From the NCBI GenBank assembly GCA_045638205.1, contig JAZUAY010000171.1, positions 1-26,357 of the forward strand: a DNA stretch of 26,357 nucleotides, written 5' to 3'. Positions 1 through 12,821 of this stretch are shown one piece after another. The notes under the pieces were generated by a model that saw only the letters and a list, made by a program, of their open reading frames with translations, was not told the origin of the DNA and did no database searches. Source of the DNA: Bacilli bacterium. GTDB lineage: Bacteria > Bacillota_I > Bacilli_A > RF39 > UBA660. Numbering within the stretch: the stretch's first letter is position 1; every line of letters starts with the position of its first letter. The position numbers and the translations under genes were made by a program.

Positions 1-392
1 TAGTGATGATACTATATTAACTATAGCAATATTAAAGGCTATAATGAATGATTTTGATTATGATAAATATATAAGAAATTATATAAAAGAATATAATAAT
101 TATAAACCAAAATTTAAACCATATTTTAAATCATCCTTTTACCAAATTTAATACAATATGTGCTGAGACTATAGATAATTGTTTATATAGTTTATATATA
201 TCAAATAGTTTTGAAGATGCAATAAGAAAAACTTTATTAATGGGAGGAGATACTGATACTAATTGTGCAATAGTTGGTGGTATGGCTGAAGCATTATATG
301 TAATAGATGATGATAAAATAAAAGTAGTGGATGAAAAAATTTCTAAGAAGTTTGTTAAAATCTTACATGAGAGTAAAAATTATAAAATATAG
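1..392 (+). pseudogene. ADP-ribosylglycohydrolase (ARH/DraG family), 5'-partial, internally deleted and frameshifted
   Basis: Frame from 2 reads SDDTILTIAI... and stops at ~150. A second frame from ~141 reads ...FEDAIRKTLLMGGDTDTNCAIVGGMAEALY...* (TAG 390-392). SDDT and GGDTDT..AI.G.MAEA are ARH motifs. The central part of the family sequence is missing at ~140. Confidence 0.8.
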
Positions 393-407
393 AAATGAGG
401 AAAATTT

Positions 408-1136
408 ATGAATTTTTATAAAGAGTTAGAAAGAGAATTTAAAAATGCAGGATTGCAAGGTAGAATAATTGAAGTTTCTGATGAATTAAAACCAACATCC
501 AAAGATTATAAAGAATTAGAAAAAAGGATTTATATAAAAACAGAAGAAAATAGAAATATGATGTATCTAAGTGGAATTTATGCATCAAATGGTATGCTAT
601 GTGGTAATATGGAAGAAAAATATATTAAAAACGAACCTAATATAATTTTTGGAACAGGAAATTATTATAATGTAAAAAAAGGAAATACTGTTTCTATAAC
701 AGGAGATGGTGGAAATGCTTGGGGTTATTTTGGACCTGCATATAAAAAATTAGCACCTAGGTTAGAAACTTATACACCTTATGCTGAAAAGTTAGAAGAA
801 TTGCAAAAATTAAAAAAAGATTTAAATAAAGTTAAAGAATATTTAGAAATTAGGAAACAAATAGAAGATAAATATATAAAAAGTTATTATGATATAAGGT
901 TAAAAGATTTAGATGTAAATGAATTATTATATACTTTAAATGAAAAATATGGTAATAATATAATATTATTATGTCATGAACCAGTAGATGAATTTTGTCA
1001 TAGAAGATTGGTTGCAGATTACATTGAACTTATAACAGGTAAATATATTCCAGAAGTAAGTATTGATGATTATGGAAATGTAAAGAAACTCATTCCACTA
1101 AGATATAAAAATAGATTAAAAAAAATAATGAGATGA
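408..1136 (+). CDS. DUF488-like protein with N-terminal extension
   Basis: 242-aa ORF with RBS (gaggaa). The C-terminal LLCHEPVDEFCHRRLVADYIE matches the DUF488 LLC.E...CHR..A motif. Confidence 0.6.
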   Translation: MNFYKELEREFKNAGLQGRIIEVSDELKPTSKDYKELEKRIYIKTEENRNMMYLSGIYASNGMLCGNMEEKYIKNEPNIIFGTGNYYNVKKGNTVSITGDGGNAWGYFGPAYKKLAPRLETYTPYAEKLEELQKLKKDLNKVKEYLEIRKQIEDKYIKSYYDIRLKDLDVNELLYTLNEKYGNNIILLCHEPVDEFCHRRLVADYIELITGKYIPEVSIDDYGNVKKLIPLRYKNRLKKIMR

Positions 1137-2718: not shown

Positions 2719-3057
2719 ATGAAACATGAAATGAAATTAAATAATGGACCATTTATGAATATAAAAAATGGAACAAAAACAATTGAATTAAGATTAAATG
2801 ATGAAAAAAGACAATTACTAAAAATAAAAGACTTAATTGAATTTACTAATGGAGAAACCTTAGAACAAATGTTAGTTGAAATTGAAAATCTATATCATTA
2901 TTCATCTTTTGATGAGTTATATAAGCATTTTGATAAAGTATCTATGGGATATAAGGAAGATGAGATTGCTGATCCAAAAGATATGGAAGAATATTATTCT
3001 AAAGAAGAACAAAAAAAATACGGGGTGTTAGGAATAGAAGTTAGAAAATTAAAATAG
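2719..3057 (+). CDS. ASCH/PUA-like domain protein (copy 1)
   Basis: MKHEMKL...FMNIKNGTKTIELRLNDEKR...IKDLIEF is the ASCH signature. RBS agaggc. Confidence 0.85.
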   Translation: MKHEMKLNNGPFMNIKNGTKTIELRLNDEKRQLLKIKDLIEFTNGETLEQMLVEIENLYHYSSFDELYKHFDKVSMGYKEDEIADPKDMEEYYSKEEQKKYGVLGIEVRKLK

Positions 3058-3080
3058 TTTAGTTTTTAATTATTTATAGA

Positions 3081-3303
3081 AGGAGTAGATATAAATGAAT
3101 AATAATGAAAATGTTGCTAAAACCAATATCAACTGGTTGATATTGATTTAGTCTAAGTTTCATTCAAACTCCTATAAAATAAAGAAAAAACAAGTATATG
3201 CTTGTTACATAATTTAATAAAAATATATAGAAATAATTATAAAAATAACTAAAAAAGCATCAAAAATGGCATAGTATTTGATACTTGGTATTGACGGTTA
3301 AAG
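3081..3303 (+). repeat. Junction J1: rbgA 5' remnant (MNNNENVAKTNINW) + S1 + type-A leader + S2
   Basis: RBS aggag 3081, ATG 3095, TGG 3134-3136. S1 TTGATATTGATTTAGTCTAAG at 3137, S2 TTGGTATTGACGGTTAAAG at 3285. Confidence 0.9.
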
Positions 3304-3365
3304 AGGTGTAAGTATGAAAATATATGGTATAATATTAATTGTCAGATAAATGAAAGGATGATATT

Positions 3366-3614
3366 ATGAAGAGTGCTGAAGAATTTATGAATGAGTTTAT
3401 GAGTACTTTACATAACATGAAAAAGTATCAGCGAATAGACATTACTAGACCAGAAACATATTCCGGAGATTTTGATAAAGTTCATGATGCATTTGATATT
3501 GAAAAAAATGTAGTTGCTACAGTTAAAGCTGAAGAAATATCTAATGTTGTTGCAGATTCACCTAAATTATTAAGACTTACCAATAAAAAAAATAATTTAT
3601 CAATTGAATCGTAA
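3366..3614 (+). CDS. Hypothetical 82-aa protein (copy 1)
   Basis: ORF with RBS aaagga and upstream TGgTATAAT. Near-identical copy at 6273-6521 (2 aa differences). Confidence 0.7.
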   Translation: MKSAEEFMNEFMSTLHNMKKYQRIDITRPETYSGDFDKVHDAFDIEKNVVATVKAEEISNVVADSPKLLRLTNKKNNLSIES

Positions 3615-3633
3615 GATTAAGATATTGCGCTTT
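3606..3633. repeat. 28-bp 11-6-11 imperfect palindromic site (family 2)
   Basis: GAATCGTAAGA-TTAAGA-TATTGCGCTTT. It overlaps the stop codon of the 82-aa gene. Confidence 0.75.
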
Positions 3634-3747
3634 GCCATATTACCAGGCAATTCTTATGGCTAGCTTGTTGTTTATTTAGTCTAAGGTAAATAATTAATAT
3701 AAAATGGGACGAAACTATACTAAATTTCGCCTTTTTTATGCTATAAT
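3634..3747 (+). repeat. Cassette tail: inverted rbgA PGHMA half-site (X) + S3 + extended -10 promoter
   Basis: GCCATATTACCAGG at 3634 (reverse complement CCT GGT AAT ATG GC). S3 TTGTTGTTTATTTAGTCTAAG at 3665. GCCTTTTTTATGCTATAAT at 3729-3747. Confidence 0.85.
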
Positions 3748-3757
3748 TGAATAGAAA

Positions 3758-3975
3758 TGGAGTGATTCCTATGAATAATAAAACTAATATAAATTGCTTG
3801 AGCATGATTTATCTAACCCCTTTAACAAATCCTTATAAAATAAGGGAAAATTGATAATTTGATCTTACATCTTTTATATAAAAAGTAAGTAAAAATGTAC
3901 AAAAAACACCAAAAATCATTAAAAATGGAGCTTTTTTTATATATTTTTGATAAGGTGATGTTTCCCGCTAACCCC
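3758..3975 (+). repeat. Junction J2: rbgA 5' remnant (MNNKTNINC) + S1 + type-B leader + S2
   Basis: ATG 3771, TGC 3795-3797. S1 TTGAGCATGATTTATCTAACCCC at 3798, CCTTATAAAATAAGG box, S2 GTGATGTTTCCCGCTAACCCC at 3955. Confidence 0.9.
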
Positions 3976-4007
3976 ACCATAAAATAGGGATTTATAAAAT
4001 TATAAGT

Positions 4008-4035
4008 AAATCGTAAAATAGTAATATTACGATCT
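4008..4035. repeat. 28-bp 11-6-11 palindromic site (family 2) upstream of the ABC-F gene
   Basis: AAATCGTAAAA-TAGTAA-TATTACGATCT. The arms are 9/11 complementary. Confidence 0.75.
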
Positions 4036-4210
4036 TTTGTCAATATAAAAAATATAGTATAATATATATGACATATAAGTGCACAATTAATAATTCTACA
4101 TATAATTAAAGAAAGAGAAAAGTCAGTGAATTATATTTTTTAGCAATTGACAAATATTGAAAAATTTAAAATTTAATGATAGTATAAAAAACTAAATAAG
4201 AGGTGATAGC

Positions 4211-5704
4211 ATGTCAACAATAAGTGTAAGCAATCTTACATTTGGTTACGACGGGGGATACACTAACATCTTTGAAAACGTTTCATTTAATATAGATTCT
4301 AATTGGAAATTAGGATTTGTTGGAAGAAATGGTAGAGGTAAAACAACTTTTTTAAATTTATTACTAGGTAAATATGAATATCAAGGAACAATTAAATCGG
4401 ATTTGATATTTGATTATTTTCCATTTGAAATAAAAGATAAATCAAAAAATTCTTATGAAATAGCAGAAGAAATAGTACCGTATTTTGAAACTTGGAAATT
4501 AAATTGTGAGATTTCTCAATTAGGAATGGACTTAAGCATATTAGAAAGATCATTTGAAAATCTAAGTAAAGGAGAACAAACACGAGTTTTACTTGGATTG
4601 ATGTTTTCTAAAGATAATAACTTTTTACTTATAGATGAACCTACTAATCACTTAGATATTGAGGCAAGAAAAATTGTCGCTGATTATTTAAATAGTAAAA
4701 AAGGGTTTATTTTAGTTTCTCATGATAGGCGCTTTTTGGATAATTGCATAGATCATGTTTTATCCATTAATAAAACTAATATTGAAGTTCAAAAAGGGAA
4801 TTTTAGTTCATGGTGGGAGAATAAGCAAAGACAAGATAATTTTGAGTTAAATCAAAATGAAAAATTAAAAGGTGAAATATCTAGATTAGAAAAATCTGCT
4901 AGACAAACAGCAAATTGGTCTGATAAAGTAGAAAAAAGTAAATATAATATTAAACAAGGTGTTGTACCAGATAAAGGTTATATTGGACATAAAGCTGCTA
5001 AAATGATGAAAAGATCTTTAGTTGCACGCAATCATAAAGAAAAAGCAATTGAGGAAAAATCAAAATTATTAAAAAATATAGAAACAATGGAAGAACTAAA
5101 AATTAGTCCAACAATTTATAGGAGTAATAAACTGTTGGAAGTATCAAATCTTAGTGTTAATTATGGAGATAGAGATTTATTTGATAAAATTAGTTTTTCA
5201 GTAAATAGGGGAGATAGAATTGAACTAAAAGGAAAAAATGGTTCTGGAAAATCTAGTTTAATCAAATTGCTTTTAGGGCAAAAAATAAAGTACAATGGTG
5301 AACTGTATTTACCCAATGATTTAAAAATTTCATATGTTTCACAAGATACGTCTTATTTAAAAGGAAATTTAAAAGATTTTATAATGGATAATAATATAGA
5401 TGCCACATTATTTATGTCAATATTAAGAAAATTAGATTTTGATAGAAAAGAATTTGATAGAAATATTGAAAGTTATAGTGAAGGCCAAAAAAAGAAAGTA
5501 TTATTAGCTAAGAGCTTATCTGAACAGGCTGATTTATATGTATGGGATGAACCGTTAAATTATATAGATATTTATTCAAGACTACAGATTGAAAATTTAA
5601 TTTTAGATTATAATCCTACGATGATATTTGTGGAACATGATGAAACATTCTCAGATAAGATTGCAACAGATAAAATAGAGATAAAAAACACATCGCAATA
5701 TTAA
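4211..5704 (+). CDS. lsa: Lsa-family ABC-F ribosomal protection ATPase
   Basis: Two ABC domains (GRNGRGKTT, GKNGSGKSS; LLIDEPTNHLD, YVWDEPLNYID). The N-terminus (NIFENVSFNIDSNWKLGFVGRNGRGKTTFLNLLLGKY) and linker (DKGYIGHKAAKMMKR) closely resemble Lsa(E)/Lsa(B) as recalled. The allele cannot be assigned without a search. Confidence 0.8.
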   Translation: MSTISVSNLTFGYDGGYTNIFENVSFNIDSNWKLGFVGRNGRGKTTFLNLLLGKYEYQGTIKSDLIFDYFPFEIKDKSKNSYEIAEEIVPYFETWKLNCEISQLGMDLSILERSFENLSKGEQTRVLLGLMFSKDNNFLLIDEPTNHLDIEARKIVADYLNSKKGFILVSHDRRFLDNCIDHVLSINKTNIEVQKGNFSSWWENKQRQDNFELNQNEKLKGEISRLEKSARQTANWSDKVEKSKYNIKQGVVPDKGYIGHKAAKMMKRSLVARNHKEKAIEEKSKLLKNIETMEELKISPTIYRSNKLLEVSNLSVNYGDRDLFDKISFSVNRGDRIELKGKNGSGKSSLIKLLLGQKIKYNGELYLPNDLKISYVSQDTSYLKGNLKDFIMDNNIDATLFMSILRKLDFDRKEFDRNIESYSEGQKKKVLLAKSLSEQADLYVWDEPLNYIDIYSRLQIENLILDYNPTMIFVEHDETFSDKIATDKIEIKNTSQY

Positions 5705-5753
5705 GATATTAGGAATTGAGAAATCAGTTCCTTTTTTAGTAATCTTACGATGT
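5690..5753. repeat. 64-bp composite: family-2 half-sites in inverted orientation around a terminator-like hairpin
   Basis: ACATCGCAATA-TTAAGA...AGGAATTGA-GAAA-TCAGTTCCT-TTTTT...TAGTAA-TCTTACGATGT. It overlaps the ABC-F stop codon. Confidence 0.8.
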
Positions 5754-5801
5754 ATTAAAAAATAATAAAGTATGATATAATACCAATAGGTTGGTGATAT
5801 T

Positions 5802-6140
5802 ATGAAACATGAAATGAAATTAAATAATGGTCCTTTTATGAATATTAAAAATGGTACTAAGACAATTGAGTTAAGATTAAATGATGAGAAAAGGAAATTG
5901 TTAAAAATAAAAGATTTAATTGAATTTACTAATAGGGAAACATTGGAACAATTGTTAGTAGAAATAGAAAATCTATATCATTATCCTTCATTTGAAGAAT
6001 TATATAAACACTTTGATAAAGTTGCTATGGGATATAAGGAAGATGAAGAAGCTGATCCAAAAGACATGGAAGAATATTATTCAAAAGAAGAACAAGAAAA
6101 ATATGGAGTTTTAGGAATTGAAATAAAAAAAGTGAGATAA
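5802..6140 (+). CDS. ASCH/PUA-like domain protein (copy 2)
   Basis: 100/112 aa identical to 2719-3057 (counted by eye). Confidence 0.85.
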   Translation: MKHEMKLNNGPFMNIKNGTKTIELRLNDEKRKLLKIKDLIEFTNRETLEQLLVEIENLYHYPSFEELYKHFDKVAMGYKEDEEADPKDMEEYYSKEEQEKYGVLGIEIKKVR

Positions 6141-6211
6141 TCGTAAGATTAAGATATTCCAGTACATTAAGATGAGAAATTATCTCATCTTTTTTAGTAA
6201 TATTGCGATGT
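6138..6211. repeat. 74-bp composite: family-2 half-sites in inverted orientation around a terminator-like hairpin
   Basis: TAATCGTAAGA-TTAAGA...AAGATGAGA-AATTA-TCTCATCTT-TTT...TAGTAA-TATTGCGATGT. Confidence 0.8.
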
Positions 6212-6272
6212 AATTAAATAATGAAAATATATGGTATAATATTAATTGTCAGATAAATGAAAGGATGATATT

Positions 6273-6521
6273 ATGAAGAGTGCTGAAGAATTTATGAATG
6301 AGTTTATGAGTACTTTAGATAACATGAAAAAGTATCAGGGAATAGACATTACTAGACCAGAAACATATTCTGGAGATTTTGATAAAGTTCATGATGCATT
6401 TGACATTGAAAAAAATGTAGTTGCTACAGTTAAAGCTGAAGAAATATCTAATGTTGTTGCAGATTCACCTAAATTATTAAGACTTACCAATAAAAAAAAT
6501 AATTTATCAATTGAATCGTAA
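6273..6521 (+). CDS. Hypothetical 82-aa protein (copy 2)
   Basis: Part of a duplication of ~3315-3800 at ~6222-6707. Confidence 0.7.
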   Translation: MKSAEEFMNEFMSTLDNMKKYQGIDITRPETYSGDFDKVHDAFDIEKNVVATVKAEEISNVVADSPKLLRLTNKKNNLSIES

Positions 6522-6540
6522 GATTAAGATATTGCGATTT
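6513..6540. repeat. 28-bp 11-6-11 palindromic site (family 2)
   Basis: GAATCGTAAGA-TTAAGA-TATTGCGATTT, directly abutting X at 6541. Confidence 0.75.
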
Positions 6541-6654
6541 GCCATATGACCATGCAATTCTTATGGCTAGCTTGGTGTTTATTTAGTCTAAGGTAAATAA
6601 TTAATATAAAATGGGAGGAAACTATATAAAATTTCGTCTTTTTTATGCTATAAT
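6541..6654 (+). repeat. Cassette tail: X + S3 + extended -10 promoter
   Basis: GCCATATGACCATG at 6541. S3 TTGGTGTTTATTTAGTCTAAG at 6572. TGcTATAAT ending at 6654. Confidence 0.85.
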
Positions 6655-6664
6655 TGAATAGAAA

Positions 6665-6885
6665 TGGAGTGATTACTATGGATAATAAAACCAATATTAA
6701 CTGGTTGATTTCAATTTAATTAAGAGCACTCCTAAAACCATATAATATAAGGGAAAATGTAAAAATACATCTTACATGTTTTTAATAAAAATAGTTAAAA
6801 AATACTAAAAAATAGCAAAATAAGTTAAAAATAAGTAAATTTTTACTAAGAAGTTGCAAGGTGATTACAAAAGTTAAGAACATAT
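6665..6885 (+). repeat. Junction J3: rbgA 5' remnant (MDNKTNINW) + S1 + type-B leader + S2
   Basis: ATG 6678, TGG 6702-6704. S1 TTGATTTCAATTTAATTAAGAGCA at 6705, S2 GTGATTACAAAAGTTAAGAACA at 6861. Confidence 0.9.
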
Positions 6886-6902
6886 AAAGAAGAGGTGAAT
6901 TT

Positions 6903-7580
6903 ATGAAATATATAATGCAAAATAATGAATCAAATTATAATGAAGTAATAGCTAATATTATTAATAATAGAAAAAAAGAAATATTTTCTTTTTTTAACAG
7001 TAAGGAAATTGATTTACCAGTTACTATATATGTTTATAATAGCATTGAAGAATTAGTTAATGGAATGAGAAAAAGAGGATACAAAAATGATCCTGACTAT
7101 ATGTGTGCATGCCAAAAAGATGAAGATAATTCTTTAAATTATTTTGAACCTAGGGATAATCCAGGTGAAAAGGAATGGTCAAAAGAAGAGTATAAGAATG
7201 TAATATTTCATGAATTAATTCATTGTATACAATTTAATCTATTTGGAACTACTCTTGAATGGATAAATGAAGGAATAGCTAAATATTTAGATGGTACATA
7301 TTCAAAAGGAATTAAATGGTTATTAGATAATTATATAAATAATAATCCGATTCCTAATCAAGATGAGATAGAGAATGAATTTGGTATGCATGAATATGAT
7401 AGTTATGATTATGCATATTTAATGGTAAGTTATATAATTGATTATTATGGTAAAGATACATTGATTGATTTATTGAAAAATAAAGAAAAATATGAAACTA
7501 TAAAAAAAGATTTATTAATAAAATCAATTGATTATTATAATATGAAATATAATGAAGAAAGTTTTTTTAAAAGTATATAA
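6903..7580 (+). CDS. Putative zinc metallopeptidase (HExxH, gluzincin/peptidase MA-like)
   Basis: IFHELIHCIQ followed by WINEGIAKYL. Confidence 0.7.
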   Translation: MKYIMQNNESNYNEVIANIINNRKKEIFSFFNSKEIDLPVTIYVYNSIEELVNGMRKRGYKNDPDYMCACQKDEDNSLNYFEPRDNPGEKEWSKEEYKNVIFHELIHCIQFNLFGTTLEWINEGIAKYLDGTYSKGIKWLLDNYINNNPIPNQDEIENEFGMHEYDSYDYAYLMVSYIIDYYGKDTLIDLLKNKEKYETIKKDLLIKSIDYYNMKYNEESFFKSI

Positions 7581-8811: not shown

Positions 8812-8832
8812 GATAAAAATGAGGTGAAGTGT

Positions 8833-9405
8833 ATGTCCAAAATATCTAAAAATATTAAAATGCTAGATATATTATCATCTGGGAAAATATATAGTTGTAA
8901 GAAACTAGCAGAAATGTTAGAAGTTAGTCCAAGAACAGTTAGACAATATAAAGATGAATTAGAAAAAGAAGGATTATATATTGAAAACATAATGGGTAAA
9001 AATGGTGGATATAGACTTTGCTCTAAAGTTGAAATACCTTCTATTTTGTTTAATAAAAATGATATAGATAAAATTAATTCAATAATAGATAAATTATCCG
9101 ATGATGATAAAAATAAATTAGAGAATATTAAAGAAAAAATTAATACTTACTGTAGATTAGTAAGTGATAGAGATAACATAAATATTGAAGATAAAAATAA
9201 AATAGATATAATACAAAATGCAATTAATAATAAGAAAAAAATTACTATAGAATACTATAGTAAAGGAATTAAAAAATCAAGAGATATATTGCCAATTCAA
9301 ATATATGTATATGAAAATATGATTATGGTAGTTGTTCATTATTCGGATGATCCAAGTGACATAAGACATTTAAATTTAAAAAGAATCGAAAAAATAATTA
9401 TATAG
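8833..9405 (+). CDS. HTH (wHTH) + WYL domain transcriptional regulator, short form
   Basis: N-terminal LAEMLEVSPRTVRQYKDELEKEG...GKNGGYRL (YafY/PafB-type HTH). C-terminal AINNKKKITIEYYS...RDILP...IRHLNLKRIEKI (WYL). RBS gaggtg before ATG 8833. Confidence 0.8.
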   Translation: MSKISKNIKMLDILSSGKIYSCKKLAEMLEVSPRTVRQYKDELEKEGLYIENIMGKNGGYRLCSKVEIPSILFNKNDIDKINSIIDKLSDDDKNKLENIKEKINTYCRLVSDRDNINIEDKNKIDIIQNAINNKKKITIEYYSKGIKKSRDILPIQIYVYENMIMVVVHYSDDPSDIRHLNLKRIEKIII

Positions 9406-9551: not shown

Positions 9552-9583
9552 ATTGATTCGCTATTTATAAATAGCGAATCAAT
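9552..9583. terminator. Perfect 32-bp palindrome at the transposase stop
   Basis: ATTGATTCGCTATTTA|TAAATAGCGAATCAAT. Confidence 0.65.
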
Positions 9584-10859
9584 CGTTCTTTGAATTTTGA
9601 ACCGAGTCAATTGGTTTGTAATATTGATTTTTTCGCAGCAATCCAAAAATCAATCTTGCAAGTTTACGAGCAGATAAAACGAGTGCACGTTTATGTTGAT
9701 GTTTAGAAACTTCCTTAAATTTAAGATCATAATAATCTTTAATAAAAGGAAAGTTTTGTCTAACACAAGAAGCAGTAGCTTCAACTAAATAATATCGTAA
9801 ATATTTATTAGACTTTTTAGAAGATTTCTTATCCTGAGAATCGAATTCTCCAGACTGATTTCTTTTCCAATAAAGTCCAGAATATTTAGCAATTTTTGAG
9901 TTATGAGGAAATCTTTCAATATTACCAATTTCAGCCATAATACCAGCAGCATAGACTTTACCAATACCACGAATAGAAAGTAAGATATTATAGGTATTGG
10001 AATCAAGTCCTAAAGCAGTTGATAAAATAGCTTTATCAATATTCTTAAGTTGTTTTTGATAAAATTTAATAGTATTTAAAGAAGAAGCAATGGCAATATT
10101 GATTGGTTCATAAGCAGTTTGATCTAATCTGTAAGAAGCATGCATGGCTTTATTTAAAGTAGTAATCTTATCATCTACATTAGAAATATGATTTTTACTT
10201 TTTTCAGAAATAAAGTTAATTAAATCTTCTACAGATGAAGATGCAATAACATCTGGAGATACAAATTCTTCTAGAAAAGCGGAAGATGTAGCACCAAATA
10301 GGTCAGAAAAAGGTATATCATTTTTGTTACAAGAAACTAATCCAGAAAAAGATAAATATAAATTAGTTAAAATATAAGTCTTTTCTTTTATTAAGTTTTT
10401 ACAAATATGATATCTTTGTCTAGTAAGACGTTGAAGTGCAATGTATTGAGAACCTTTAAATGGATATAAAGCTTTAGTTCTGCCGACTCTTCCATAGTCA
10501 GCAAGAATATAAGCATCAATACCATCTTCTTTTTCTAAATCATGAAAACTTTTCTTATATTTATCAAAATCACAAGCATTGATTTGATAAACTTCAGTAT
10601 GAAAATTATTTAAATATTCATTAGAAGAAAGATAACAAGCAGGATGAAAAGAATACATGCCAGTAGATTCCATAACAATGATAATTTTATCAAAGAATAA
10701 TGTATCTTCAATATCTTTAATTTTATTAATAACCATATCGTTTCCTTCTGGATTATTGGGAAACTTAAGGTTAAAATAAATATGTTGATCAAAATTCATA
10801 ACGCAAAACTGATTACCTTTAAGACCTACATCAACACCAATGAACAAAGAGTTTTGCAT
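9579..10859 (-). CDS. IS110-family (DEDD) transposase/recombinase
   Basis: N-terminal FIGVDVG and VMESTGMY (RuvC-like DEDD), KEDGIDA..LA. C-terminal SIRGIGKVYAAGIMAEIGNIERF...YSGL...QSG...SNKYLRYYLVEA. ATG 10859 has RBS aggtgg. Confidence 0.95.
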   Translation of the reverse strand: MQNSLFIGVDVGLKGNQFCVMNFDQHIYFNLKFPNNPEGNDMVINKIKDIEDTLFFDKIIIVMESTGMYSFHPACYLSSNEYLNNFHTEVYQINACDFDKYKKSFHDLEKEDGIDAYILADYGRVGRTKALYPFKGSQYIALQRLTRQRYHICKNLIKEKTYILTNLYLSFSGLVSCNKNDIPFSDLFGATSSAFLEEFVSPDVIASSSVEDLINFISEKSKNHISNVDDKITTLNKAMHASYRLDQTAYEPINIAIASSLNTIKFYQKQLKNIDKAILSTALGLDSNTYNILLSIRGIGKVYAAGIMAEIGNIERFPHNSKIAKYSGLYWKRNQSGEFDSQDKKSSKKSNKYLRYYLVEATASCVRQNFPFIKDYYDLKFKEVSKHQHKRALVLSARKLARLIFGLLRKNQYYKPIDSVQNSKND

Positions 10860-11250
10860 AAGTATCACCACCTTTCGATAAAATATTTTGTGAAACATAA
10901 TAAACTACAGATACCCTTGCTTAAAAGTTTGACAACAACCTCGTTATAAGAATACATCTTTTGTTTAAGGATAATGTGCTGCGATTAAACTTAAAAAGAG
11001 AAACATCATCTGAGTTAGAAGGATGATAACTCATAAGTAGGGAAACATTCTAAACTAGTAAACATCATAAAGAGTTACAGGAGGGTTAAGAATAGATCCT
11101 AGTTATTATATTTCAATAAAATATAATAACACAAGGGTAAAAATAATCCATAGTTTTTACTATTTTTACTTATAAAAATAGAATAAATAAAAATAGTTAA
11201 TATAAGTGAAAAAATCACTTACAAAAACTATTATACGAGGAGGTATTTTT

Positions 11251-12473: not shown

Positions 12474-12821
12474 ATGGAATTAAATTATGCAATATTTAGA
12501 AGTGAACCTATTATGACTATACCTGATTTAGCACAAATAGGATCACATAATAAAAGGGAAAAGAAAGTGTATCAATCAAATAAAGATATTAAAATAGAAT
12601 TAAGTAAAAACAACATAGAACTTGTTCCTTTAAATGTTAAATATGTAAAAGGTTTTGATGAACTAACTAAAGAATATAAAAAAGAACACGAAGAAAGAAT
12701 GAAAACTGAACGAGCTGATAGAAAGAAAAGATACCATGAAATGTTAAATAGTTCTAAAAATGTTGTTGCTGATGAATTAGTTATGACTGCTTCACATAAT
12801 TTCTTGCTAGGTGAAATTTGA
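12474..12821 (+). pseudogene. Truncated MobV/Pre (Mob_Pre) relaxase N-terminus
   Basis: YAIFR...SHNKR...SNKDIKIELSKNNIELV...VVADELVMTAS resembles MOBV motifs I and II. It ends before the HxDExxPHxH motif. Confidence 0.65.

Follow-up and report, generated by a model that had tools for sequence, protein, structure and literature searches.

Two classes of short sites delimit proposed gene cassettes, one with an Lsa-type ABC-F gene, in uncultured gut and rumen Bacilli

The stretch of DNA considered here, called the window throughout, is an entire contig of 26,357 nucleotides (JAZUAY010000171.1; contig C171 of genome G000, assembly GCA_045638205.1) from a Bacilli bacterium (GTDB lineage RF39; UBA660) whose genome comprises 1.24 Mb in 199 contigs with a GC content of 26.6%. 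Part of it is built as an array of units, each ending in a copy of the 5' end of rbgA (3119, 3780, 6687 and so on up to 17633), and within two neighboring units lie genes bounded by short sites of two classes, R and L, which we interpret as crossover sites of a gene-cassette system. One rbgA unit contains an 82-aa gene alone (copy 1, 3366-3614) with a nearly complete R site at 3608. The next contains a complete L site (4010), an lsa gene, an ASCH-domain gene (ASCH-2), a second copy of the 82-aa gene, two junctions of the form R-terminator-L, and a complete R site (6515) just 5' of the rbgA tail. The R/L system is thus cargo nested in the rbgA system. All features of this region given below are on the forward strand; G, C and L numbers denote genomes, contigs and loci.

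The Lsa cassette body (4034-5704) consists of its own predicted promoter and leader (4034-4210) and the lsa gene (4211-5704), the product of which is a 497-aa Lsa-family ABC-F ribosomal-protection protein with two Pfam ABC_tran domains and NCBIfam scores of 727.5 bits (ABCF_Lsa_all) and 473.7 bits (ribo_prot_ABC_F). The ASCH-2 cassette body (5752-6140) has a promoter region and a gene for a 112-aa ASCH-domain protein (5802-6140), and a paralogue, ASCH-1 (2719-3057), is 87% identical to it at the nucleotide level and has neither L nor R. The third body (6210-6521) carries the L-linked promoter GTAATTAAAT..TGGTATAAT and copy 2 of the 82-aa gene (6273-6521); the two copies are 99% identical (3314-3613 against 6221-6520), and their protein has no match in Pfam or NCBIfam. 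Between the bodies lie junction A (5692-5751), made up of R site 2, an intrinsic terminator at 5711-5732 with a T-run, and L site 2, and junction B (6140-6209), made up of R site 3, a terminator at 6169-6191 with a T-run, and L site 3. The 64- and 74-bp R-hairpin-L elements proposed in the initial annotation are thus present, and their hairpins score as intrinsic terminators, of which five were found in the site region against 0.4 expected. No Rfam match was obtained within 3000-7000.

The window holds seven sites, four of R type and three of L type. R sites follow the pattern ATCG[Y]AA[K]A-TTAAGA-TATT.. and are located on or at a stop codon, and L sites follow the pattern ..TAGTAA-T[M]TT[R]CGAT and are located 5' of a promoter. 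R site 1 (3608-3631) has the inner arm ATCGTAAGA, the spacer TTAAGA and a nearly complete outer arm, TATTGCGCT, with an rbgA-type cassette tail directly 3'. R site 2 (5692-5715) has its arm at 5692-5700 and its spacer at 5701-5706, and R site 3 (6140-6163) has its arm at 6140-6148, its spacer at 6149-6154 and the outer sequence TATTCCAGTAC. The three-cassette array is opened by the complete L (4010-4033), with outer arm ATCGTAAAA, spacer TAGTAA at 4019-4024 and inner arm TATTACGAT at 4025-4033, and closed by the complete R (6515-6538), with arm ATCGTAAGA, spacer TTAAGA and arm TATTGCGAT, again directly followed by an rbgA-type tail; these are the two window sites in which both arms are intact. 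L site 2 consists of a spacer at 5737-5742 and an inner arm at 5743-5751, and L site 3 of a spacer at 6195-6200 and an inner arm at 6201-6209.

All the sites that had been claimed to the left (TAGTAA) and right (TTAAGA) of the Lsa, ASCH-2 and 82-aa genes were located, and the claimed overlap of R with stop codons was borne out in three forms: the stops of the 82-aa genes (3612-3614 and 6519-6521) lie inside the R arm, that of lsa (5702-5704) lies within the R spacer, and the TAA of ASCH-2 (6138-6140) shares its last A with the R arm. The architecture first proposed, 28 bp arranged as 11-6-11, has to be shortened. As the conserved arms are 9 nt long, the core is 9-6-9 (24 bp), and the two extra bases on each side show a weak A/T bias in the logo. 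The R pattern was matched 9 times against 0.87 expected from dinucleotide-preserving shuffles, the L pattern 10 times against 0.48, and the full 24-mer 5 times against 0.16, and no shuffle reached the observed count. A motif scan of the 1.24-Mb genome revealed no R or L motif outside the window.

A logo of 211 R sites reads A88 T99 C93 G90 n A96 A98 (G/T) A100, then TTAAGA, TATT and a weak nCGAT, where the search pattern itself imposed the spacer and the adjoining TAT or TGT. After a weak TCGnWWWW, the L logo continues with TAGTAA and T n T T n C G A T. Both kinds of arm, ATCGnAAnA in R and TnTTnCGAT in L, are copies of one consensus, and the core has the layout of tyrosine-recombinase sites, namely two inverted arms around an asymmetric 6-bp spacer that is invariant within its class. 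The R spacer is nearly invariant, being TTAAGA in 280 of 353 relaxed hits with no variant occurring more than a few times, and no hybrid R/L spacer was seen among the site junctions and relaxed R hits. Read inverted, the R and L spacers match at 4 of 6 positions, and read direct at 2 of 6. The conserved arms face the gene from both sides in the manner of inverted sites, although by arm sub-consensus L and R are direct repeats with different spacers.

The sites are not restricted to the window, nor are their flanking genes constant, as they would be if the motif were peculiar to this locus. At least five pattern matches were found in 12 of 301 genomes of the same family, with the reversed control pattern never exceeding four, and the same sites bound co-oriented cassettes of one to three genes in many other genera of this family, all of them ruminant-gut metagenome-assembled genomes (MAGs) under names that include Bacilli bacterium RGIG..., uncultured Erysipelotrichaceae RUG... 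and Clostridium sp. CAG:1193. Neither are the sites placed upstream of core genes, where a transcription-factor operator would be expected. Arrays of about 10 cassettes after a rumA-like gene (G281:C3) and of about 12 (G074:C2) were found, with others in G333, G240, G027, G001 and G031. Exact R sites occur on more than 119 genome contigs, and the exact complete L site occurs on more than 120 rumen metagenome contigs among the matches listed. Viral contigs gave only three single matches, consistent with chance, and plasmids gave no match to junction B, their matches being limited to the body of the lsa gene at 63-67% identity. The unit of junction A is also present in G001:C17 and G074:C2, and junction B is the commonest junction type elsewhere, the distance from R to L being 55-57 nt in 19 of 35 unique junctions. 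A 24-mer identical to the complete L at 4010 opens or joins cassettes in G281 and G031.

Site polarity is strict across these genomes. The longest open reading frame (ORF) lies on the L-to-R strand in 61 of 64 L..R intervals (218-3507 bp, median about 800), and of the 211 R sites, 146 lie at the end of an ORF of 60 codons or more, the ORF end falling between -30 and +25 nt relative to the start of the arm and peaking at -4, +1 and +13. Downstream of the R spacer and TAT(T) follow a terminator hairpin and a T-run, after which two forms are seen, either an extended -10 promoter (TGnTATAAT) directly or TAGTAA, the inner arm and the GTAATTAAAT..TGGTATAAT block. Complete sites are located at array ends and in one long junction type. 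The cargo is of the usual accessory kind and comprises XRE-family regulators, GNAT/YoaP acetyltransferases, Fic proteins, a nitroreductase, hydrolases, a radical-SAM protein, ABC transporters, two-component systems and RhuM, and the 5' neighbors of arrays are rumA-like, type IV coupling protein (T4CP), Mob, large serine recombinase (LSR) or other genes of no recognized function. An empty attB at the 3' end of the rumA-like gene was considered and rejected, the site being absent there in 30 other genomes; for the same reason, the G281 and G031 arrays lie in inserted islands. The gene beyond the G031 array is accessory, being present in 2 of 121 genomes. As a separate observation, complete R sites at some array ends (L021, 1333-1380; L023, 6475-6520; L024, about 7440-7485, minus strand) are followed by a common motif, ATAACCCC(CC)TGTA..TGTAG, which could mark where a further, R-targeting element ends.

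That the sites are points of exchange is indicated by where homology between loci stops. Between G074 and G027 the ORF135 cassette shows 98.7% identity, while its flanks are unrelated; at its left R identity begins at the spacer, and at its right R three genomes form a chimera that switches inside GATTAAGATATT. For the ORF247-295 pair, G074 and G031 diverge directly after TTAAGATATT. In pairwise flank comparisons of unique sites from different loci, 59 R pairs had the left flank alone in common, with divergence from site position 18-21 in 51 of them, 73 had the right flank alone in common, with divergence at the variable positions of the arm or just outside it, and only 5 had both in common; the one-flank counts for L pairs were 50 and 15. 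The variable bases of the inner arm travel with the gene and not with the junction, so the switch falls between arm position 8 and TAT(T), rather than at the outer edge of a mobile palindrome. More generally, 158 of 437 informative homology-block ends (36%) fell within 15 nt of a site center against 9.0 +/- 3.1 (2%) for random decoy positions, and a block end occurred within 30 nt of 46% of gene ends with a site against 4% of 1533 without one. From these comparisons of sequence we conclude, with high confidence, that R and L sites act as exchange points.

The Lsa cassette keeps its limits in natural populations. Contigs (not reads) of four bovine-gut sequencing runs were placed on window positions 3300-6900. 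A 1790-nt contig from run X1 covers 4019-5709, that is, from the first base of the L spacer to the TAT after the R spacer, with 42 differences (about 97.5% identity), and at both ends it continues into sequence unlike the window. A joint of 6195 to 4019, which places junction B ahead of lsa, was found in X1 and X3, from two studies, and would be the product expected of an L x L exchange. Metagenome contigs break at 4019, and a 547-nt X1 contig covers ASCH-2 (5737-6158). Depth was 60-77 over junction A and 109-170 over junction B against 2-20 over the genes, and because the junction bins are thus 10-40 times deeper, the junction units are present in high copy in these bovine-gut communities. 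The closest lsa homologues within the family (G028 and G177; 93% amino acid identity) are without L and R; their similarity to the window starts right after the L inner arm and stops about 15 nt before the lsa stop codon of the window. The R site provides the final codons of the window's gene (T S Q Y stop), whereas G028 has another tail there. These homologues argue against an operator or a gene-specific signal, and they present the gene naked as well as in cassette form. Together with the bracketing of different genes by the same sites in many genomes and the homology blocks that break inside them, the preserved L and R limits of the Lsa cassette in another context support the earlier proposal of a separate single-gene mobilization system nested in the rbgA array.

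We propose, with a probability of about 70%, that R and L are two crossover-site classes of a site-specific recombination system, with the same arms and different, non-interchangeable spacers, which delimit self-contained cassettes. A cassette would run from the L inner arm through its own promoter and one to three genes to the R inner arm on the stop codon, and a junction from the R spacer through TAT(T) to an intrinsic terminator and, optionally, a T-run, the L spacer and the next cassette. Recombination would take place within a class, R with R and L with L. Two direct copies would recombine to excise a circle with one hybrid site, the circle could enter any site of the same class, and two elements would trade whole cargo segments when an R x R event is paired with an L x L event. 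The window's cargo bay would extend from the complete L (4010) to the complete R (6515) in one rbgA unit and hold the lsa, ASCH and 82-aa cassettes. The enzyme would act in trans, and the 9-6-9 layout with near-identical inverted arms would best fit a tyrosine recombinase of a single species and not host XerCD at dif. The anatomy, polarity and distribution of the sites and the exchange breakpoints inside them are observed features of these genomes. From them we infer by which route cassettes are excised and integrated, that the spacers are heterospecific, and to which class the enzyme belongs; the near-invariant spacers and the absence of hybrid ones fit a requirement for identity in the overlap.

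Several observations weigh against this proposal. No circular intermediate was seen in the contigs of the bovine-gut runs. The outer arms are mostly degenerate and replaced by terminator stems, which is unusual for a core site with two arms. The crossover is placed no finer than site positions 8-17 or so, given that spacer variants are rare singletons, and some of the swaps could be homologous recombination because the junction units are 45-57 nt long and highly conserved. No recombinase is consistently adjacent at about 60 genome and 120 metagenome loci. G281, which has a 10-cassette array and is 93% complete, contains as assembled only two Xer-like tyrosine recombinases and no serine recombinase (no Resolvase-domain gene). 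In G000 the sites are confined to the window, and the genome has no close homologue of the candidate recombinase discussed below.

Four other explanations were weighed against site-specific exchange at two spacer classes. The system could be driven by host XerC and XerD acting on R and L, as proposed for plasmid dif (pdif) modules of Acinetobacter, and the arm, 6-bp spacer and arm layout, the modules of single genes of which one is a resistance gene, and the fact that, of the site-specific recombinases, only Xer-like genes recur in all site-bearing genomes examined, being the sole ones found in G281, all agree with this. The genomes' own dif nevertheless speaks against it, and the dif-module mechanism put forward in the initial annotation was not supported. 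A search of G000 and five relatives, for which B. subtilis dif served as a seed only, identified in G000, which has XerC- and XerD-like genes (on C29 and C30), a single dif-like 28-mer of canonical Firmicute type (ACTTCCTATAA TTGATA TTATGTTAACT, C25:2264-2291, minus strand). The same 28-mer occurs in one exact copy each in G074 and G333, in the latter 1.5 kb from an Xer-like gene, with a 6-bp-spacer variant noted once in G074, weaker 3-mismatch matches in G281 and G240 and none in G027, and it has no arm in common with R or L. Since the host dif is canonical and unrelated to these sites, hijacking of Xer is quite unlikely. Furthermore, XerC and XerD arms differ from each other, whereas the R and L arms are the same sequence and so point to one binding specificity, and the sites are patchy (12 of 301 genomes rich) though Xer-like genes are in every genome examined. 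The dif-module papers found, PMC13141974 and PMC6449649 among them, deal only with Acinetobacter plasmids and with dif-like sites. A serine recombinase could instead operate the same cassette system on sites of 10-4-10 layout, with central crossover dinucleotides AA (R) and GT (L) that would be equally non-interchangeable. The arm symmetry does reach one base into the spacer (ATCGnAAnAT / ATnTTnCGAT), G000 has six serine-recombinase-like genes, and LSR genes abut sites at several loci: LSR596 stops 4 bp before a complete L (G001 and a metagenome contig), and two unrelated LSR genes follow the same gene and R site in G333 and RUG12046. We regard this variant as unlikely, as these LSRs fall into different families and, like anything else, seem to have been joined at R as cargo or backbone, and G281 lacks any Resolvase-domain gene. 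Normally, LSR att sites are about 40-50 bp long, with attB unlike attP.

The remaining two explanations concern the junction units themselves. The R-hairpin-L elements were initially likened to attC, and an integron-type system with folded single-strand sites would account for the co-oriented, mostly single-gene cassettes with a site at the 3' end, for the lack of a neighboring integrase, as in clusters of attC sites lacking integrases (CALINs), and for the fold of the 64-nt element with its arms paired (-8.7 kcal/mol, z -3.9). For the 74-nt element, however, the minimum-energy fold is the terminator alone, and the outer arm of the commonest junction, TATTCCCGTAC, lacks complementarity to its partner. 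Among 35 unique junctions there is no covariation of R and L arms, position 5 being complementary in 9 (9.1 expected) and position 8 in 8 (13.1 expected), for which reason the junctions cannot be called attC-like. R-only junctions also recombine, compact complete 24-bp sites exist, each cassette has its own promoter, and there is no IntI-like gene beside any array. The attC reading is largely refuted and very improbable. The junction units may, on the other hand, be palindromic terminator repeats akin to repetitive extragenic palindromes (REP/REPIN), or conserved terminator and promoter modules, that spread alone while genes are swapped by homologous recombination between them. Their depth of 10-40 times that of the genes in rumen metagenomes and their supply of terminators and promoters would be explained in this way. 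It would not account for the breakpoints within the 24-bp core, from arm position 8 to TAT(T), for chimeras of partners with only about 12-19 nt in common, or for arrays that have complete, hairpin-less sites at both ends. Because the inner arms segregate with the genes, a unit that includes both arms is not what moves. The version of this model with a REP-associated tyrosine transposase (RAYT) was rejected, as no Y1_Tnp/RAYT gene (PF01797) is present in five site-rich genomes and the arms go with the flanking genes; independent spread of the units in general we consider improbable.

Which enzyme would carry out the proposed tyrosine-type exchange can be stated with low confidence. Mapped against about 180 loci, none of the following was consistently adjacent: an XerA-like protein of 320 aa, an IS91-linked tyrosine recombinase, Tn916-type integrases of 383-531 aa from integrative mobilizable elements (IMEs) and integrative and conjugative elements (ICEs), three LSR families, and an IS110 transposase. 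Tn916-type integrases with Mob_Pre relaxases (IMEs), ICE genes and the three LSR families are often near arrays at varying distances, and recombinase-bearing segments tend to occupy the R-to-L position and cargo the L-to-R position, which fits arrays being cargo bays of mobile elements. A link between IME ends and the sites was rejected, as the Int426/Mob IME ends at CACGTATTTT and not at an L site.

The best candidate is the XerA-like tyrosine recombinase of 320 aa (NF040815, 233 bits against a cut-off of 220), which has about one chance in three of being the enzyme of the system. An R-bounded block of R outer arm, terminator, promoter and this recombinase gene occurs in G027:C21 (gene at 10-972, minus strand), G405:C28 and a metagenome contig, and each time R connects it to a different gene upstream. 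The metagenome contig and a second G027 copy (G027:C29) carry a fic gene 3' of the recombinase gene, in the latter with an L site after it. Of the 12 site-rich genomes, 4 have the recombinase gene, compared with 15 of all 401. The odds are no better because it is missing from most array-bearing MAGs, G000 included, and because its distant homologues (55-64% identity) lie between hsdS genes and are probably invertases of type I restriction-modification shufflons. At three loci (L158, L167 and L170, in G072, G233 and G069), Xer-like genes are flanked by hsdS (Methylase_S), and these loci are probably phase-variable type I restriction-modification shufflons. Two further observations were made around XerA-like genes. 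Between the gene and fic (L011, 130-315; L319, 1925-2030) there is a tandem AAGAATTAAGC repeat that echoes the R core (AAGATTAAGA) and is possibly a degenerate site or one with an accessory role. At L156 (G069:C19), two variant half-sites at 1380-1500, TTGAGATTGCGAT and TAATAAGATTGCGAT, precede a homologue that is 74% identical, which hints that diverged enzymes come with diverged sites.

The system resembles integron cassettes and dif modules in how it works, yet it fails the defining tests of both. With integrons and CALINs it has in common co-oriented arrays of mostly single-ORF cassettes, a site that abuts or overlaps the stop codon, the flavor of its cargo (NUDIX, GNAT, glyoxalase-type and small genes without assigned function, and a resistance gene), and the presence of the same cassette in different arrays of different genera. 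Unlike in integrons, no IntI, attI or common promoter Pc was found beside the arrays (about 60 genome and 120 metagenome loci), the sites are compact cores of double-strand type and not folded attC, each cassette has its own predicted promoter and terminator, and there are two classes of site and not one. With pdif modules it shares modules of one to a few genes, often resistance genes, between short sites of arm, 6 bp and arm; modules that abut, so that every inter-site segment is a module and the R-to-L junctions correspond to the alternate class; and the lack of a dedicated recombinase gene beside the modules. It differs from them in that the R and L sites are unrelated to host dif and have one consensus for both arms, that the two spacer classes have strict polarity, with R at the stop codon, L 5' of the promoter and genes co-oriented in 61 of 64 cassettes, that outer arms are mostly replaced by terminators, and that it is found in uncultured Bacilli, with chromosomal islands, IMEs or ICEs as its carriers in place of Rep_3 plasmids. 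REP, bacterial interspersed mosaic element (BIME) and REPIN sequences are likewise short palindromic units of high copy at gene 3' ends that double as terminators, but here the exchange points are inside the core, the arms belong to the flanking genes, and RAYT was not found. As an engineering concept, recombinase-mediated cassette exchange with heterospecific lox or FRT sites is similar in placing cargo between sites with the same arms and incompatible spacers, so that it can be exchanged and not excised by its own pair. The system described here is a natural one, and the incompatibility of TTAAGA and TAGTAA is suggested only by the absence of hybrid spacers.

The R and L site sequences were not found in the literature searched, and a search on integron-like systems in Firmicutes and on rumen mobile genetic elements gave nothing matching, so that this gene-cassette system of rumen and gut Bacilli is apparently undescribed. 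It is possible, although doubtful, that it represents, in addition to integrons and dif modules, a third and independent cassette system of bacteria, native to a lineage of Bacillota, with cargo bays defined by two heterospecific sites on IMEs, ICEs and rbgA-targeting elements, cassettes that are complete transcription units, an XerA-like recombinase that itself travels between R and L, and cassettes born by the capture of ordinary genes at their ends. If the proposal holds, short-site cassette shuffling would have arisen independently in uncultured small-genome Bacilli of the gut and rumen with a design unlike that of integrons. It would also provide a concrete route for an Lsa-type ABC-F gene to pass from element to element in livestock microbiomes as a unit of 1.7 kb; judged by their family, Lsa-type genes confer resistance to lincosamides, streptogramin A and pleuromutilins. 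The naked and cassette forms of lsa would offer a handle on cassette birth, which is still an open question for integrons, and two 24-bp sites that appear to be naturally incompatible could, if the enzyme is found, serve as a cassette-exchange tool for low-GC Gram-positives.

Some further observations relate to the rbgA array and to the remainder of the window. In another genome (L026, G333:C19, 11463-12990), an LSR of 415 aa with Resolvase, Recombinase and Zn_ribbon_recom domains comes after a complete R site and is itself followed by a short ORF start ending in ..CAAATCAACTGG, similar to the rbgA 5' repeats of the window; this recombinase may be of the type that serves the rbgA-targeting array. 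Its relative in G000, on C117, is only 28% identical. At 12474-12821 the window carries a 115-aa ORF that corresponds to the first 109 residues of a Mob_Pre relaxase and shares 72% identity with the relaxase of the IME in G031, G074 and G027. It is what remains of an IME inside the rbgA array; a fuller homologue is located on G000:C178. An IS110-family transposase gene lies on the minus strand at 9579-10898, behind an apparently cut-short WYL/HTH regulator gene (8824-9405), and a copy with 69% identity is found about 1 kb from an R site in another MAG (L034). At 1892-2684, a RhuM-family gene is represented by two overlapping ORFs (1892-2182 and 2118-2684), the second of which matches no more of the profile than positions 95-250, so that a frameshift in the gene is probable.

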